Positions 12,726 through 64,000 of a stretch of DNA of 64,000 bases are shown here, piece after piece (within the stretch, counting starts at the first letter, position 1; each line of letters opens with the position of its first letter). Source of the stretch: an uncultured Pelagibacteraceae bacterium (GTDB lineage: Bacteria > Pseudomonadota > Alphaproteobacteria > Pelagibacterales > Pelagibacteraceae); the NCBI GenBank assembly GCA_902550285.1, contig CACCYQ010000002.1:8030-72029 (forward strand). The letters run 5' to 3'. The notes beneath the pieces were generated by a model. The model had not been told where the DNA came from, made no database searches, and saw nothing but the letters and a program-made list of their open reading frames with translations. The translations under genes were made by a program, and so were the position numbers.

Positions 12726-13847
12726 CTAATTTTTTTTAGATGGTATTTCGTCTTTTTCTTCTGCTTTCACTTTTTCTTGATCGATAGGGTTTCCTTCAAT
12801 CTTTTTTGAAATAAGACCAGCTTTTTCTCTTATGGTCATTTCTATTTCAGCAGCAGCTTTTGGATTTTGTTCAAGATAAAGTTTTGCATTTTCTTTTCCT
12901 TGTCCAATTTTTTCACCTTTGTAGGCATACCAAGCCCCAGCTTTTTCTACAATCTCAGCTTTTGCCCCAAGGTCTATTAACTCACCAGTTTTACTAATTC
13001 CTTTTCCATACATTAGATCGAATTCAACAACTTTAAATGGTGGGGCAACTTTGTTTTTAACTACTTTTACTCTAGTAGAATTTCCAATAATTTGCTCTTT
13101 ATCTTTGATGGCGCCTATTCTTCTAATATCCATTCTAACTGATGAATAGAATTTTAGTGAATTACCACCTGATGTTGTTTCTGGGCTTCCAAACATTACA
13201 CCAATTTTCATTCTAATTTGGTTAATAAAAATAACCATTGTGTTCGTTCTAGAAATTGAACCAGTTAATTTTCTTAACGCTTGAGACATTAATCTTGCTT
13301 GAAGACCAACATGGTGATCTCCCATATCACCTTCTATTTCAGCTCTTGGAGTTAATGCTGCAACAGAGTCCACCACAAGAACCGACATTGAGCCAGATTT
13401 AATTAATGTGTCAGTAATTTCTAAAGCTTGTTCGCCAGTATCTGGTTGGGAAATTAGTAATTCTTCAGTATTTACGCCTAATTTCTTGGCATAAACTGGA
13501 TCTAATGCATGTTCTGCATCAACAAATCCGCAAATACCGCCAGCTTTTTGTGCTTCAGCAACAACTTGAAGCGCAAGTGTTGTTTTTCCAGAAGACTCTG
13601 GACCATAAATTTCAACAATTCTTCCTTTTGGAAGTCCGCCAATTCCTAGAGCAAGGTCTAAACTTAGAGATCCTGTTGAAATTGACTCAATGTCCATTGC
13701 TTTTTGCTGTCCTAGCTTCATTACAGAACCTTTTCCAAAATTATCTGTAATTTGGCTGATTGCAGCTTCTAAAGCTTTATTCTTTTCTTTGTTTTCTGAA
13801 TCTTTCTCTTTAGTAGATTTAACTACCTTTAAATTATTCTTTATCAT
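12726..13847 (-). CDS. recA: Recombinase RecA
   Basis: [37 protein letters not shown]. Confidence 0.99.
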
Positions 13848-55718: not shown

Positions 55719-57068
55719 CTAATTACTCAATAAAGATGACCAAGATGGGTCAGATGCATCTGTCTCAGTTTCAACCAATCTCTCGTTATAACCAGTCAAA
55801 TCAATAGACCACAATTTCGCTGAAAATCCTTTGCCTTCACTGTCTGATTTGGTTTCTCTATAAAAAATTAGAACTCTGCCATTTGGTGACCAAGAAGGTG
55901 CCTCTTGATAATAGTTTTCTGTAAGTAATCTCTCACCTGTTCCATCTGTTCTCATTACTCCAATGTAAAATTTTCCTTTATGCAGTTTAGTAAAAGCTAT
56001 CAAATCACCTCGTGGAGACCAAACAGGTGTACCATACAAACCTTTTCCAAAAGAAATTCTTTTTACAGATTTTCCATTACTTTTCATTGTATATATTTGC
56101 TGATATCCACTTCTATCAGAATTAAATGCAATATATTTGCCATTAGGTGAGAAAGATGGAGAGGTATCTATTGAAGGATGATTGGTGATCTTTTCAACAA
56201 TTCTATTTTCAAGATCCATTGTATAAATTTCAGAATTTCCATCTTTAGCAAAGCTCATTATAATTTTTTTTCCATCCGGTGAAAATCTAGGAGCAAATGT
56301 CATTCCTGGAAAATCTCCAACAACTTCTTGTAAACCTGTTTCAATATCTAAAAGGTATACTCTTGGTAAATTTTTAAAATATGACAAATAAGTTACCATC
56401 TGGTTTGTAGGATTAAATCTAGGTGTAAGTACTAATTCATTTCCTAATGTAAGATATTTATTATTAAAACCGTCTTGATCCATAATCGCAAGTCTTTTAA
56501 TTCTTCTAGTTTTCGGTCCTTTTTCAGATACGTATATAATTCTTGTATCAAAATAACCTTTCTCACCAGTTAGTCTTTCATAAACTTTATCAGTTATTAT
56601 ATGCCCAACTCTTCTCCAATTATTAGGAACTGTAGTAAAAGCTAAAGCAATCATTTCCCTTCCTGCAAGAACGTCCCAAAGTCTAAATTCTACTTTTAAT
56701 TTGTCATCTACTAATGAAACTTTTCCTGTAATTAATGCTTGTGCTTTTATCAATCCCCAATCTTCAAATCTTGGTTTAAAGTGAGCTATGTCAGGTTTTT
56801 GCAAAAAAGCTTTTTTATCTAAAGGGTTAAACAAGCCTGTTCTTTTTAAATTATTCTCTACAATTTTTGAAATTTCTGAACCAATATCGCTTATTTCTAG
56901 TTCTTTTTTTCCATTATTTATAGTTTTTTCATCAGAAAATAATGGAGATACTGCAATTGGAAGGGGATTTAAATTACCTCTTGTAATATCAACTTCGATT
57001 AAAGAGTAAACATTATTAGGTAAAAAAAATAATATTAATAATACGATTGTTTGTATTTTTCTAATCAT
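55719..57068 (-). CDS. tolB: Tol-Pal beta-propeller protein TolB
   Basis: GYFDTRI, MDQDG, repeated PxFSPDG/PxWSP motifs. Confidence 0.96.
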
Positions 57069-57874
57069 CCTTCTAACATCTCCCTTGCATCAAAATTAAG
57101 CTGTAAATCCTTCCACCTTTCATATCCAGTGCTTGGAACTCTCAAAGGTTGACATAATTGAATGGCTCTAAGTGCACTTTCGGCTAAAACTTTATAGAAA
57201 CCTTGTCCAGGCTTATTCATTCTAGCATGATCTAGTATTTCTGTTTTAGTCACTGTTCCATCTGGTTTCAACTTTAATTTAATTCTAACTAATAAGTTTT
57301 CATTATATGGTAAACCCAAAGGAATGCTCCAGCAACCAAATATTTGTGCTTTAAGAGCATCTTCCTCGGTTAGTGTTAATGCTTGAGAGTTCATAGTTGG
57401 ATCCTGAGATTGAGATACATCAGGTGATTTTTCATTTGTAACTGCCATTTCTTCTTTAGATTTATCAATTAAAGCAGCTATTTGATTTGGATCAAACATT
57501 TCATCTTTTTCAAACTCTGAAACTTGTTTAACTTTATTATCTTCTTTTTCTGGATTTTGTTTTTTTTCCTCTATTTTTTTTATTTTTTCAACTTTCTCTT
57601 CTGGTAAAGGGATTGAGTCTGGTTTTTCTTTCTTTATTTTTTTTGGTGGTGCCTGTTCCGATACAAGTTTTTCCTGTTCTTTTTTTACTTTTTCAATAAT
57701 TTTTTTAGCTTTTGGAGCATAAGGAATATTGGTTTCATCTGTAATCTGAATTAATTCAATTGAAACTATAGGAGGTATATCTAATGGTTTTTTTGCTACA
57801 AAAGGTAATGTTATCATTGCAAAAAAAATTATAAATAAATGAAATCCAGATGAGAGTATAAGGTTTTTATACAC
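57065..57874 (-). CDS. tolA: TolA-like cell envelope integrity protein
   Basis: N-terminal TM with SxxxH (SSGFH), K/E/P-rich linker, C-domain QIFGCW...AESALRAI; located between tolR and tolB. Confidence 0.82.
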
Positions 57875-57877
57875 AAT

Positions 57878-58294
57878 TTATCTCTCCTTATAAGGTTCAG
57901 AAATTAATGCTACTTTCGTAAAGCCAGATCCTGACAACATTCCCATAACTTCTAAAACTCTTCCATAATTTATTGTCTTGTCGCCTCTAACATAAATTCT
58001 TGTATCTGTTCTGTTTTTTGAGACAGCTAATATTTTTGCAATAACACTATCATATTCAACTTTTGCTTCTTGGACAAAAATTTCTCCTTTTGAATTAATA
58101 GTTAATGTAAGTGGTTCTTGTTCTTCGGGAAGAGAGTCAGCTGAACTTTCTGGTAGATCTACTTGCACCCCCACAGTCAACAAAGGTGCAGTAACCATAA
58201 ATATTATCAGCAAAACTAACATTACATCTACGAATGGCGTAACATTAATTTCACTCATCGGTTCTCTAAGTGAACTTTTTAATTTAAATGCCAT
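57878..58294 (-). CDS. tolR: TolR
   Basis: EINVTPFVDVMLVLLIIFMVTAP, VRGD. Confidence 0.95.
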   Translation of the reverse strand: MAFKLKSSLREPMSEINVTPFVDVMLVLLIIFMVTAPLLTVGVQVDLPESSADSLPEEQEPLTLTINSKGEIFVQEAKVEYDSVIAKILAVSKNRTDTRIYVRGDKTINYGRVLEVMGMLSGSGFTKVALISEPYKER

Positions 58295-58295
58295 T

Positions 58296-58970
58296 TTAAA
58301 TTATTGAGACAAATCTCTTTGAAAAATTTTCTAATTTTTGTAAATATTTTTTTGAATCACTATTAAATTTATTGTAAGCGACTACAGCAGGTATAGCTGC
58401 CAATAATCCTAGCGCGGTCGCAAAAAGAGCTTCTGCAATTCCTGGTGCCACAATTGCTAAACTAGTATTTCTTGATATTGCTATCGACTGAAAAGAATTC
58501 ATTATTCCCCAAACAGTTCCAAAAAGACCTATGAATGGAGCCGTAGATCCGACAGTTGCTAAAAAAGTATAATTTTTTTCTATCTTAATCATTTCTTTAT
58601 CAATATTTGTTTCCAGTATCACTGGAAGTTTGTCTGTTAAACTTGATCTTGATCTTGATTTTACAACTGTTTGCATACAACTTTTAAATATATTTGCCAT
58701 AGGGTCACTAACATTGGAGGGTAAATTATTATAAAAGGTTTCTGCTGATTTTGATTTCCAAAATTTTTCCTCGAACTCCTCTGAGCTTTTATTTATATTT
58801 TTAAACAATTTATATTTATCAAAAATTATAGCCCAAGAATAAATTGAACTGGCTATTAAAATTATTATAACCGATTTAACTATTACATCTGCTCTTATGA
58901 AAAGCTTTAAAATTGAAAAATCTGTGTTACTTGCAAGACCAACTGCCTGAGAGGTAATATCTGCTTCCAT
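58296..58970 (-). CDS. tolQ: TolQ
   Basis: APFIGLFGTVWGIM, VAPGIAEAL, AAIPAV. Confidence 0.95.
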   Translation of the reverse strand: MEADITSQAVGLASNTDFSILKLFIRADVIVKSVIIILIASSIYSWAIIFDKYKLFKNINKSSEEFEEKFWKSKSAETFYNNLPSNVSDPMANIFKSCMQTVVKSRSRSSLTDKLPVILETNIDKEMIKIEKNYTFLATVGSTAPFIGLFGTVWGIMNSFQSIAISRNTSLAIVAPGIAEALFATALGLLAAIPAVVAYNKFNSDSKKYLQKLENFSKRFVSII

Positions 58971-59023
58971 TTAAAAGCTTTCACACTAAAATGTGTCATC
59001 AATTTGTCTTTTTTAATATTACT

Positions 59024-59518
59024 TTAATCTTCGACACGATAAGTATTGTTAAAATAACTAGCAATTAGTATTGCGTCGGCTTTGTTTGAGTCTTTTTTTC
59101 TAGTTAATTTCGATGAAATAGAAGGAAAAATTTCAATTGCTTTAGATCTGCTTGCCTCTTTTTCTGTTTTTAATAAATTAAAGTATTTTTTCCATTTCGC
59201 TGGTCTTACAAAATAAATAGGTAATTGCATTGCTGAACAAATTCCTTTTATAACACCAAAAGATTGTCCAAAATTAAACATGCTTGTTACTCCTTGTCCT
59301 GGCATTGCAGAAACTTGCTCAACTACAACAAATATATCTTTTTTTGAAAAGTTTTTAATTCTTAAATAAATTTCATTATAAGTTTGAGAACCATTGATTT
59401 GTCTTTTATTTTTTTTTCCATCTGGCATAACTGGCATATCTATAATGTCCTTAACCTCGCCATCTTCAAAAAAACAAATGGCTCCAGAGATTCCTGGATC
59501 TATCCCTATTATTAACAT
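59024..59518 (-). CDS. RuvC-fold Holliday junction resolvase, atypical (phage/MOC1-like) type
   Basis: IGIDPG, VVEQV, SAMPGQGVTSMFNFG, VRPAKWKK, ADAILIA; occupies the ruvC position after yebC. Confidence 0.8.
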   Translation of the reverse strand: MLIIGIDPGISGAICFFEDGEVKDIIDMPVMPDGKKNKRQINGSQTYNEIYLRIKNFSKKDIFVVVEQVSAMPGQGVTSMFNFGQSFGVIKGICSAMQLPIYFVRPAKWKKYFNLLKTEKEASRSKAIEIFPSISSKLTRKKDSNKADAILIASYFNNTYRVED

Positions 59519-60244
59519 TTAACTCTCAATAAATTTAACATTTGTAAAAACATTTTGGACATCATCAATATCTTCTAAATTTTCTAAAAATTTTATAGCA
59601 CATTCTTTATCTTCTCCGTACAAATCCACACTATTTAATGGTATCCATTCTATTTCTGTTGATAGAAAATTAGTTATATTTTTTTCTAATTTTTTTTTTA
59701 CATTATATATATCTTCTTTTTTACATCTTATCTCATGAAAATCTGAGTTCAAAAAACATTCATCCGCTCCAGCTTCTAAAGCATATTCAAATATTTTCTC
59801 CTCTTTTACTTCATTTTTATTTATTTTAATTATACCGATTTGATTAAAATTGTGGGATGCAGATCCCTGTGTGCCAAGGTTACCGTTGTTCTTTTGAAAT
59901 ATAGATCTAATTTTTGAAGCAGTTCTATTTTTATTATCAGTTAAAGCTTCTACTATTACAGCTATTTTACAGGGACCAAATCCTTCATAACGCAAGTTTT
60001 CAAAATCTGAGTCTAAATTAATCTTTGATTTTTCTATGGCTCTTAAAATATTATCTTTGGGCATATTTGAAGATCTTGCAGATTGAATGGCTGATCTTAG
60101 TCTGGGATTCATTTCTGGGTTTTTGTCTCCGAGTTTTGCAGCGACTGTAATTTCTTTTGACAACTTCGCAAATATCCTTGACCTTTGTTTATCTGCTCTA
60201 TCTTTTTTATGTTTTATTCCTGCCCAGTGTGAGTGTCCTGCCAT
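59519..60244 (-). CDS. yebC: YebC/PmpR family protein
   Basis: MAGHSHW, NPRLR, YEGFGP, TDNKNRT, DDVQNV. Confidence 0.96.
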   Translation of the reverse strand: MAGHSHWAGIKHKKDRADKQRSRIFAKLSKEITVAAKLGDKNPEMNPRLRSAIQSARSSNMPKDNILRAIEKSKINLDSDFENLRYEGFGPCKIAVIVEALTDNKNRTASKIRSIFQKNNGNLGTQGSASHNFNQIGIIKINKNEVKEEKIFEYALEAGADECFLNSDFHEIRCKKEDIYNVKKKLEKNITNFLSTEIEWIPLNSVDLYGEDKECAIKFLENLEDIDDVQNVFTNVKFIES

Positions 60245-60246
60245 AA

Positions 60247-61044
60247 TTAAATTAAATCTCCTCCAAAAATAAAACTTTCGATTTTATCAGCTAAGCCAGT
60301 TTTTTTATTCGCATCAACAATTAGTCCACACAAACTTGCTTCACCTGTGGCCGGAAAATGTTTAACAGCATCTTTTTTTAAAAACTTGTTCAATGAGTTT
60401 TCTTTATTCATTCCAATAACAGAATTATAATCTCCACACATTCCAGCATCAGTTAAATATGCAGTACCGTTTTTTAATATCCTTGCATCGTTAGTAGGAA
60501 CGTGCGTGTGTGTACCAACAACTAATGTTGCTTTTCCATCAAAAAAATGACCGATGGCCATTTTTTCACTTGTTATTTCACCGTGGAAATCAACTACTAA
60601 AAAATCAAAATTTTTTTTTAATACATTGTTTTTTAAAAATAAAACTGAAGATTCAAAAACATTTTCACATTTTTTCATAAAAATATTTCCCATTAAATTT
60701 AAAACTCCTATTTTTAATCCATTTTTAACTTTATAAATTCCAAATCCTTCACCCGGTGTTGCTGCTGGCAAATTAAATGGTCTTAAAAGTTTATTTTCTC
60801 GAGTTATATATTGTGCTGTTTCTTTTAAATCCCATACATGGTTTCCGGTTGTAATAACATCCGCACCGTATGAAAAAAGTTCGTTTGAAATTTTTTCAGA
60901 AATTCCTACTCCTCCTTCGGCAGCATTCTCACCATTTACTATTACAAAATCTATATTTTTTTGGTTGATTATGTTTTTTAAATTTTTTTTTATTGATGTG
61001 CATCCTGATTTACCCACAACATCTCCCAAAAATAAAATTCTCAT
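60247..61044 (-). CDS. YmdB-like metallophosphoesterase
   Basis: GDVVG, NGEN, GNHVWD, DFHGEITSEK, GTHTHVPT, TDAGMCG. Confidence 0.93.
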   Translation of the reverse strand: MRILFLGDVVGKSGCTSIKKNLKNIINQKNIDFVIVNGENAAEGGVGISEKISNELFSYGADVITTGNHVWDLKETAQYITRENKLLRPFNLPAATPGEGFGIYKVKNGLKIGVLNLMGNIFMKKCENVFESSVLFLKNNVLKKNFDFLVVDFHGEITSEKMAIGHFFDGKATLVVGTHTHVPTNDARILKNGTAYLTDAGMCGDYNSVIGMNKENSLNKFLKKDAVKHFPATGEASLCGLIVDANKKTGLADKIESFIFGGDLI

Positions 61045-62403: not shown

Positions 62404-63462
62404 TTGAACAAGCAAAATAGAGATTTATCAAATGCAATAAGGTTTTTAAGTATAGATGCTGTGGAAAAAGCTAATTCAGGGCACCCTGGTCTGCCAATGG
62501 GTATGGCAGATGTAGCCACAATATTATTTAAGTATTTTTTAAAATTTAATCCAAAACATCCTGATTGGATAAATAGAGATAGATTTATTTTATCTGCGGG
62601 CCATGGTTCGATGCTACTTTATTCTTTACTTTATCTTACAGGTTATAAAAGTGTGTCAATTGATAACATAAAAAATTTTAGACAATTAAATTCGATTTGT
62701 GCCGGTCATCCTGAGTATGAAAAAAATACTGGTATAGAAACTACTACAGGGCCACTAGGTCAAGGAATAGCAAATGCAGTTGGATTTGCATTAGCGGAAG
62801 AAATTTTAAAAGAAAAATTTGGAAAAAAAATTATAAACCATAAAACCTATGTTTTGGCTGGAGATGGCTGTTTAATGGAAGGAATAAGCCACGAAGCTTT
62901 AAGTTTAGCAGGACATTTAAAATTAAAAAATTTAATTTTATTATTTGATAATAACTCAATATCAATAGACGGACCTACAAACCTTGCTGTATCTGATGAT
63001 TTTAAAAAAAGATTTAATAGTTATGGATGGAATTATATTGAAATAGATGGACACAATGAAAAACAGATTTTTAATGCTTTAAAAAAATCTCAGAAATCCA
63101 AAGCTCCTTCAGTAATTTCATGCAAAACAATTATTGGTTATGGTTCTCCCAACAAATCTGGAACAGCATCTGTACATGGAAGCCCGCTAGGAAAAGATGA
63201 AGTAGCCCTGGCAAGAAAAAAACTAAAGTGGAACTGTAAACCTTTTATAATTCCAAAAAATATAATTAATGAATGGAGAAAGATCGGAGCAAAAGCATCT
63301 CAAAAATCGAAAAATAAAAAAATTAAACCTAAAAATATTTCTAAAATAGTTTCAAAAATAATTAAAAAAAGAAAAACAAAATTATATAAAGTCTATGGAA
63401 GCATCTGCAACAAGAAAATCTTCACAAAAAATAATAAATTCATTAACAAAAAAAATCCCTGA
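62404..63462 (+). CDS. tkt: Transketolase, N-terminal (TPP-binding) part; frame disrupted near 63364-63370
   Basis: [37 protein letters not shown]; transketolase similarity moves to the +1 frame after about codon 322. Confidence 0.9.
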
Positions 63463-64000
63463 ACTTATTGGAGGTTCTGCAGATCTTTCAGGATCAAACA
63501 ATACAAAGTCTGAAAATCATAAAATAATTAAACCTGGAAATTTCAAAGGAAATTATCTTCATTATGGTGTGAGAGAACATGCAATGTGTGGAATAATGAA
63601 TGGCCTTGCACTACATAGTAATTTAATTCCATATGGTGGTACTTTTCTTATTTTTAGTGATTATTGTAAACCTTCTATAAGATTGTCGGCTCTTATGAAA
63701 CAAAGAGTAATTTATGTTATGTCTCATGATTCTATTGGTTTAGGTGAAGATGGTCCAACTCATCAACCAGTTGAGCAACTTAGCAATTTAAGATCTATAC
63801 CAAACTTAAATGTGTATAGACCTGCTGACACTATAGAAACTTTTGAATGCTGGGAACTTGCTTTAAAAAATTATACTTCACCAAGTGTCATTGCCCTATC
63901 CAGACAAAAAATTAATCCAGTCAGAAAAAAATATGAGCCCAAAAATAAATGCGCTTCAGGAGCATATGAAATATTAAGAACTAATAAAAAAATAGAATTA
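63371..64000 (+). CDS. tkt: Transketolase, pyrimidine-binding part in the +1 frame, running off the window edge
   Basis: Manual translation: [19 protein letters not shown]...[11 protein letters not shown]...YGVREHAM...[10 protein letters not shown]...[15 protein letters not shown]. Confidence 0.9.

Follow-up and report, generated by a model that had tools for sequence, protein, structure and literature searches.

RuvAB is among the most widely conserved of bacterial machines. In ruv mutants of Escherichia coli, RuvABC can nevertheless be replaced by the rus route, in which RusA, a stand-alone resolvase derived from a prophage, operates with RecG, and the chloroplast resolvase MOC1 acts alone, without a motor of the RuvAB type. 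Here, we describe a gene for a 164-residue protein found at the position of ruvC in a 64,000-nucleotide (nt) stretch of DNA (the window) from an uncultured bacterium of the SAR11 family Pelagibacteraceae (GenBank assembly GCA_902550285.1, contig CACCYQ010000002.1, positions 8,030 to 72,029 of the forward strand). We consider it very probable that this gene was acquired from a phage and replaced ruvC, ruvA, and ruvB, and that its product is a resolvase of Holliday junctions from the phage/MOC1 branch that acts alone, with junction cleavage as its predicted activity.

SAR11 bacteria recombine at a very high rate and do so without RecBCD, RecF, and MutSL (PMC12374537). The main text of that 2025 ISME J paper on SAR11 recombination is silent on Ruv proteins and resolvases (PMC12374537), and our literature search found no paper on the loss of ruvABC or on a MOC1-type resolvase in SAR11.

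Family, fold, and phage relatives of the 164-residue protein

The protein turned out to belong to the MOC1/phage branch of the RuvC (RNase H-like) superfamily and not to canonical RuvC. The Pfam RuvC model (PF02075) did not match it even at E 0.1, and the NCBIfam RuvC equivalog (NF000711) gave 15 bits (E 0.016) versus a cut-off of 163 bits, while PHROG 1770, annotated as "Holliday junction resolvase," matched residues 1-159 with E 2.4e-35. The match to Pfam DUF3882/PF07066, a lactococcal phage family, was below threshold (E 1.3e-3). For more sensitive comparisons, a family profile was made from an alignment (A2) of 82 members, comprising 12 genus-level SAR11 sequences and 70 representatives drawn from a library of 1.8 billion proteins. 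The library was searched at the level of 50% representatives, as a search of 90% clusters had been saturated by SAR11 copies and returned no outgroups. Compared with proteins of solved structure, the profile matched nine chloroplast MOC1 sequences at E values from 7e-34 to 4e-27, the best being NtMOC1 (positions 3-155), and reached canonical RuvC, that of Deinococcus (7w8d), with E 1.6e-4 only.

The predicted fold gave the same picture. The AlphaFold2 model of the protein had a predicted local distance difference test score (pLDDT) of 94.4 and a predicted template modeling (TM) score of 0.90. The top 11 Foldseek matches listed were all MOC1 or MOC1-junction complexes (TM score 0.77-0.87, root mean square deviation [rmsd] about 2 Å, 23-30% identity), led by a MOC1-junction complex with a TM score of 0.87 and an rmsd of 2.0 Å, whereas the canonical RuvC proteins of E. 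coli, Thermus, Pseudomonas, and Deinococcus and the RuvC of a lactococcal phage scored 0.61-0.67. An original prediction, made from the letters of the window alone, had held the protein to be nearer to phage and MOC1 resolvases than to E. coli-type RuvC on the strength of motifs. The motifs GIDPG, SAMPGQGVTSMFNFG, and VRPAKWKK are all present in the 164-residue translation, and the PHROG 1770 match, the E values of the MOC1 profile matches, and the Foldseek scores agree in bearing that prediction out.

Separately, open reading frames of 764-771 residues in some genomes of the genus matched the resolvase weakly (33% identity over residues 10-147; e.g., G043:C1:1305011-1305424). They probably represent the YqgF-like domain of a Tex-type protein, and Tex was also among the structural matches.

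In a maximum-likelihood tree of 118 sequences (quick search, LG+G4), the 30 alphaproteobacterial RuvC proteins were split from the SAR11 and viral sequences with 100% support in the Shimodaira-Hasegawa-like approximate likelihood ratio test, and the branch between the two groups measured about 4 changes per site. The 12 SAR11 proteins came together in one clade (99%), which was surrounded by viral and metagenomic sequences. The protein thus lies inside a viral radiation and not among alphaproteobacterial RuvC proteins, as the proposal of a xenologous displacement had supposed. Homologues with 32-41% identity were found by tblastn in 126 isolated phages, many of them annotated as junction resolvases; these phages include Planktothrix phage PaV-LD, Salmonella phage epsilon15, phiCbK-like phages of Caulobacter, and phages of Stenotrophomonas, Pseudomonas, and Microcystis. 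Relatives with up to 46% identity were present on more than 560 IMG/VR contigs. When the family profile was run against 300 alphaproteobacterial genomes, a copy was found in only 3 of the approximately 298 genomes outside SAR11, and the one of these three copies that was inspected sat among prophage repressor-type genes.

The same data bear on the idea that the protein is a vertically inherited SAR11 orthologue of RuvC, disguised by fast evolution and AT bias, with its likeness to phage proteins due to convergence or long-branch attraction. The exact ruvC position of the gene after yebC, the faint NCBIfam RuvC match, the name RuvC that some JGI records give to close homologues, and the deviant amino acid composition of the SAR11 rows in the tree all speak in its favor. 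We nevertheless judge it highly improbable. The long derived motifs AMPGQGV and KWKK are common to the SAR11 resolvase and phage proteins encoded on contigs with a guanine-plus-cytosine (GC) content of 54-68%, so AT bias cannot explain them, and the neighboring genes in the same genomes have remained ordinary orthologues. The E values place MOC1 about 30 orders of magnitude closer to the family profile than RuvC, and neither the gap between the TM scores for MOC1 and RuvC nor the fully supported split on a long branch fits vertical descent.

Conservation of the locus and search for recombination partners

In the window, the resolvase gene lies between yebC and tolQ (Table 1), both of which reached their NCBIfam equivalog cut-offs. 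The TAA of yebC (59519-59521) immediately precedes the ATG of the resolvase gene (59516-59518), leaving a spacer of 0 nt, and the 53-nt spacer on the tolQ side is the sole content where ruvA, ruvB, and ybgC would be. The open reading frame listing and direct reading of the sequence therefore confirmed both the predicted order, with its spacers of 0 and 53 nt, and the claim that ruvA, ruvB, and ybgC cannot be accommodated between yebC and tolQ. Since the stop codon of yebC abuts the start codon of the resolvase gene, the two genes are probably co-transcribed, and the adjacency of TAA and ATG suggests that their translation is possibly coupled as well. The gene has the GC content of the window as a whole (29.5% versus 29.3%); a recent insertion was therefore rejected, also in view of the synteny kept across nine genera.

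The resolvase was found in 58 of 60 near-complete (at least 90% complete, 1.0-1.5 Mb) Pelagibacteraceae genomes, representing 9/9 genera. One of the two genomes without it simply lacks assembled sequence at this place, and a copy that appeared truncated in another genome (G004) proved to be interrupted by an assembly gap (a run of N) and not by a deletion. The order ymdB-yebC-resolvase-tolQ-tolR-tolA was seen in all 23 loci inspected, which cover all nine genera, and in the 12 loci with long flanks it extended to a 5-formyltetrahydrofolate cyclo-ligase-like gene upstream, named from sequence reading alone, and to tolB downstream. Comparison of the window's resolvase with a metagenomic orthologue (88% identity) gave a ratio of nonsynonymous to synonymous substitution rates (dN/dS) of 0.08, next to 0.07-0.09 for yebC and 0.03 for tolQ and tolR. 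These data describe a housekeeping gene that has become fixed in a conserved operon of the host and is kept under strong purifying selection; its acquisition is ancient and family-wide, not particular to the window's genome.

In three other SAR11 genera, a gap of about 500 nt separates the resolvase gene from tolQ, and in the one locus examined it holds a gene for a YbgC-type thioesterase. As ybgC is retained between the resolvase gene and tolQ in some SAR11 genera, the ancestral order of the family is yebC-resolvase-ybgC-tolQ, in which a single gene stands where the canonical order has ruvC-ruvA-ruvB; in the window's genus, ybgC was additionally lost from this locus.

The partners of canonical RuvC were looked for by profile searches, each of which also recovered the bacterial genomes included as positive controls for the family in question. 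Among the 60 near-complete family genomes, none contained RuvA_N, none had RuvB_C over its cut-off, and none matched the RuvB model TIGR00635 at E 1e-10. Pfam RuvC was found in one of the 60, and this lone match (G025; locus L020, G025:C12:116592-120035) was discarded because it lies on a contaminant contig with 64% GC in a genome of about 30% GC. RusA was found in 0 of 40 near-complete family genomes. The window's own genome (879 kb, 45 contigs, 67% complete) likewise yielded no RuvA, RuvB, or PF02075 RuvC. The expectation that no canonical ruvABC set would be found elsewhere in the genome thus held, both for this genome at its 67% completeness and for the 60 near-complete relatives.

The wedge domain of RecG, in turn, was present in 58 of the 60 genomes (this tally and that of the resolvase include the unpublished genome G033, on which no claim depends alone), and in the own genome RecG is encoded by a 684-residue open reading frame on contig C4. 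The RadA/Sms model TIGR00416 gave nothing over its cut-off in 21 genomes of the order (the own genome and 20 relatives), with partial matches only, to Lon, RecA, and DnaB-like open reading frames, which may leave RecG as the sole motor dedicated to branch migration. The original prediction had spoken of a minimal, RuvAB-independent system of junction resolution. Independence from RuvAB was upheld, but "minimal" must be taken to include RecG: with RecG retained, the system is RuvAB-independent but not motor-free.

The slot after yebC was then compared across other alphaproteobacteria. In 26 of the 30 other families compared, canonical ruvC follows yebC immediately and in the same orientation, often with ymdB ahead of yebC as in SAR11, and RuvA was encoded by the open reading frame after ruvC in 6/6 loci checked, which bears out the yebC-ruvC-ruvA part of the usual order assumed at the outset. 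Canonical RuvC was present in 146 of 151 genomes at the class level (150 family representatives and the own genome). The five without it were the own genome, one family member, one genome with RuvA at a contig edge, and the small genomes G134 and G155, in both of which RuvA and RuvB were not found either. The 164-residue resolvase was found in 0 of 20 genomes of the sister family, which belongs to the same order, and RuvA, RuvB, and RuvC were not found in the three to five genomes tested for each; the place between yebC and tolQ is taken there by a PD-(D/E)XK protein of the PDDEXK_15/PHROG 244 type. The tally of 146/151 includes the unpublished genome G141 and that of 0/20 includes G107; neither genome is decisive alone. 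G155 has a PDDEXK_15 protein after yebC and G134 a PHROG 2002 protein. Altogether, three unrelated phage-type resolvase families (MOC1-type, PDDEXK_15, and PHROG 2002) fill the slot in four small-genome lineages lacking RuvABC. That unrelated resolvase families have refilled the same slot argues that the function selected at the position after yebC would be junction resolution.

This distribution also admits a stepwise history, to which we give somewhat less than an even chance: the ancestor of the order would have exchanged ruvCAB for a PD-(D/E)XK phage resolvase, and the ancestor of Pelagibacteraceae would later have taken the MOC1-type gene. Such a sequence accords with the PDDEXK_15/PHROG 244 gene in a sister family in which RuvA, RuvB, and RuvC were not found, and with the occurrence of the same PDDEXK_15 type after yebC in the further family represented by G155. 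Gene order alone, however, cannot establish the sequence of events, which would be explained equally well if each family had made its own direct replacement independently.

Table 1 Features of the resolvase locus in the window and of corresponding loci in other genomes (numbers without a prefix are window positions)
Feature	Coordinates	Strand	Basis or remark
MOC1/phage-type RuvC-superfamily resolvase gene, 164 aa, ATG start	59024-59518	minus	Open reading frame listing
yebC/pmpR-family gene, marks ancestral ruvC position	59519-60244	minus	Pfam, NCBIfam equivalog
AT-rich spacer, 53 nt, resolvase gene to tolQ	58971-59023	minus	Direct sequence reading
tolQ	58296-58970	minus	NCBIfam TIGR02796 E 4.5e-77; Pfam MotA_ExbB
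tolQ-tolR-tolA-tolB block, tolQ first, tolA assigned as tolA-like	55719-58970		Open reading frames
ymdB-like metallophosphoesterase gene, upstream of yebC	60247-61044	minus	Pfam YmdB E 3e-96
recA, pathway context outside the resolvase locus	12726-13847	minus	NCBIfam TIGR02012 E 5.8e-168
YbgC-type thioesterase, 137 aa, between resolvase gene and tolQ (other SAR11 genus)	L022:4574-4987	minus	4HBT_2 E 2e-16; one locus examined
PD-(D/E)XK protein, 126-127 aa, at yebC-X-tolQ of the sister family	L035:1020-1400; L037:2317-2700	minus; plus	Pfam PDDEXK_15 E 4e-8, PHROG 244 E 2e-20
PHROG 2002 "Holliday junction resolvase," 122 aa, after yebC in G134, then tolQ	L163:1137-1505	minus	
PDDEXK_15 protein, 168 aa, after yebC in G155, then tilS-like gene	L160:1378-1884	minus	

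Away from the resolvase locus, a transketolase gene at the end of the window is split in two overlapping frames on the plus strand (62404-63462 and 63395-64000) amid runs of A (63300-63450), which reflects a sequencing error in a homopolymer or else a genuine frameshift.

Catalytic residues, junction-core loop, and predicted dimer

In the HMMER alignment, residues D7, E67, D143, and D148 of the resolvase correspond to D116, E175, D253, and E258 of NtMOC1, that is, to the residues replaced in the catalytically dead crystal form of that enzyme (D116A/E175A/D253A/E258A; PMC7078210). All four were unchanged in 12/12 SAR11 sequences. Across A2, D7 and E67 were present in 82/82 members, position 148 was D or E in 82/82, and position 143 was D in 71/82. 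The acidic catalytic residues that the original prediction had seen as retained thus align with the complete MOC1 tetrad.

The loop expected to enter the junction core is different. In MOC1, it provides an aromatic wedge and Asp183, which reads cytosine (PMC7078210). In the SAR11 resolvase it reads E67-QVSA-M72-P-G-Q75, and the base-recognition motif of MOC1 (aromatic wedge plus Asp) was not found in it, the aligned residues being Met72 and Gln75. These two residues are typical of the subfamily, with Met72 in 73/82 and Gln75 in 77/82 of the phage/SAR11 members, and distinguish it from plant MOC1 proper. With a core loop unlike that of MOC1 but typical of phage and SAR11 proteins, the resolvase was assigned to the MOC1/phage branch of the superfamily. 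As Met72 and Gln75 replace the wedge and Asp183, the preference of MOC1 for C-C cleavage would not be expected to hold.

A model of two copies of the protein scored 0.62, versus 0.31 for the best control, a pass which may only reflect likeness to the MOC1 and RuvC dimers already solved. That mark was reached by 20/30 proteins solved as same-chain pairs and by 1/23 solved as single chains. Contacts agreed between runs to at least 98%, with a partner pLDDT of at least 87, and the interface in the model consisted of residues 70-98, covering the predicted dimer helix (residues 77-96), the one that pairs in RuvC and MOC1. The protein may act as a homodimer.

RuvC-fold nucleases serve many roles, and the substrate preference of this one is a prediction. 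The gene could accordingly be a domesticated phage nuclease with another main task, such as the processing of flaps, reversed forks, or branched DNA, or defense, in which case Holliday junctions would be removed otherwise, e.g., by RecG-driven reversal with a topoisomerase or by another nuclease. The junction-opening residues M72 and Q75, unlike those of MOC1, fit such a role, as does the pared-down recombination set of SAR11, which reportedly lacks RecBCD, RecF, and MutSL (PMC12374537) and in which the search for RadA/Sms was negative. We regard this as improbable, however, given that all the solved close relatives (MOC1) and the annotated phage relatives are junction resolvases, that the predicted dimer uses a helical interface of the RuvC/MOC1 type, that other lineages lacking RuvABC carry unrelated phage resolvase families at this very position, and that searches of the genomes with the RuvC and RusA models turned up no further resolvase family.

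Proposed pathway and comparison with known systems

We therefore favor a stand-alone junction resolvase and propose the following course of events. The ancestor of the SAR11 family would have taken the gene from a phage long ago, and ruvC-ruvA-ruvB would have been lost. A homodimer of the resolvase would bind four-way junctions made by RecA, the strand-exchange protein whose products it would cut, or by RecG. The center of the junction would be opened by the Met72/Gln75 loop, which follows the catalytic glutamate E67, and paired symmetric nicks would be introduced through a two-metal site formed by D7, E67, D143, and D148, without RuvAB, as in MOC1. Branch migration, where needed, would be left to RecG or RecA. 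On this reading of the genomes, the resolvase probably cuts junctions unaided while RecG remains as the junction motor, and this enzyme may be the sole resolvase of the cell.

Several observations weigh against this proposal. Junction cleavage and the role in the cell are predicted from homology, and the homology is imperfect just where Met72 and Gln75 occupy the positions of the MOC1 wedge and of Asp183; the specificity of the enzyme, and possibly its efficiency, may differ from those of MOC1. As for its origin, the tree contained neither MOC1 nor the poxvirus and yeast Cce1/Ydc2 resolvases, and the nearest non-SAR11 neighbors joined the SAR11 clade at 83% support only. Their representatives (P0140, P0149, P0169, and P0182) lie on short phage-like contigs with 54-68% GC, one of which has an HNH endonuclease gene beside the resolvase homologue, and no donor could be named from these contexts. 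Finally, with 67% of the own genome at hand, the inferred absence of ruvAB from the very cell that gave the window rests on its complete relatives.

A broader view, which we put forward only tentatively and consider rather unlikely in its full extent, is that SAR11 and at least three other streamlined marine alphaproteobacterial families gave up RuvABC and use RecG with a stand-alone resolvase derived from phages, the slot having been refilled by at least three unrelated families. The preference conferred by the Met/Gln loop would then suit an AT-rich genome, alter the resolution of crossovers, and add to the high recombination of SAR11.

If the favored reading is true, the most abundant free-living bacteria of the ocean replace RuvAB by one phage-type enzyme of 164 residues, and RecA, RecG, and a stand-alone resolvase form a natural minimal Holliday junction pathway outside organelles and phages. 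Since the cutting of junctions decides the crossover outcome, the resolvase would bear directly on recombination in SAR11 populations. The origin of plant MOC1 could be viewed against a large family of bacterial and phage proteins, and a single chromosomal slot refilled time and again by phage resolvases of unrelated families would offer a clean example of non-orthologous gene displacement. A small, partner-free resolvase may also be of interest to users of structure-selective nucleases as tools.

The SAR11 resolvase belongs to an enzyme family already described, in a role that is new at the level of the pathway, and its nearest described counterpart, by both profile and structure, is chloroplast MOC1 (NtMOC1, 6kvn/6kvo/6lct; ZmMOC1, 6is8, 6jrf, and 8kfr). 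The two have catalytic cores of equal length and four aligned acidic residues, and the predicted dimer helix may be the same as well. Besides the loop, in which Met72 and Gln75 stand for the aromatic wedge and Asp183, the SAR11 protein differs from MOC1 in being bacterial, chromosomally encoded in a genome of 29% GC, and free of a transit peptide. The phage resolvases of PHROG 1770 match it at 35-41% identity over 93-96% of the length in isolated phages, with AMPGQGV and KWKK in both, but their genes sit amid phage genes, while the SAR11 copy lies in a conserved host operon and has host-like GC.

Canonical RuvC (PF02075; E. coli, 1hjr; Thermus thermophilus, 4ld0) has the superfamily fold, the kind of acidic site, and the position after yebC in common with the SAR11 resolvase, but it works with RuvAB, and RuvA and RuvB were not found in SAR11. 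The RuvC of lactococcal phage bIL67 (4ktw) is also a phage resolvase of the RuvC fold, but it belongs to a different phage subfamily and is structurally no closer to the SAR11 protein than canonical RuvC is (TM score 0.61). RusA, whose fold is unrelated and which was recovered from none of the SAR11 genomes searched (0/40), together with RecG offers the closest functional analogy, as SAR11 likewise keeps RecG and a phage-derived resolvase. The rus route is a laboratory suppressor in E. coli; in SAR11, the corresponding arrangement would be the natural state.

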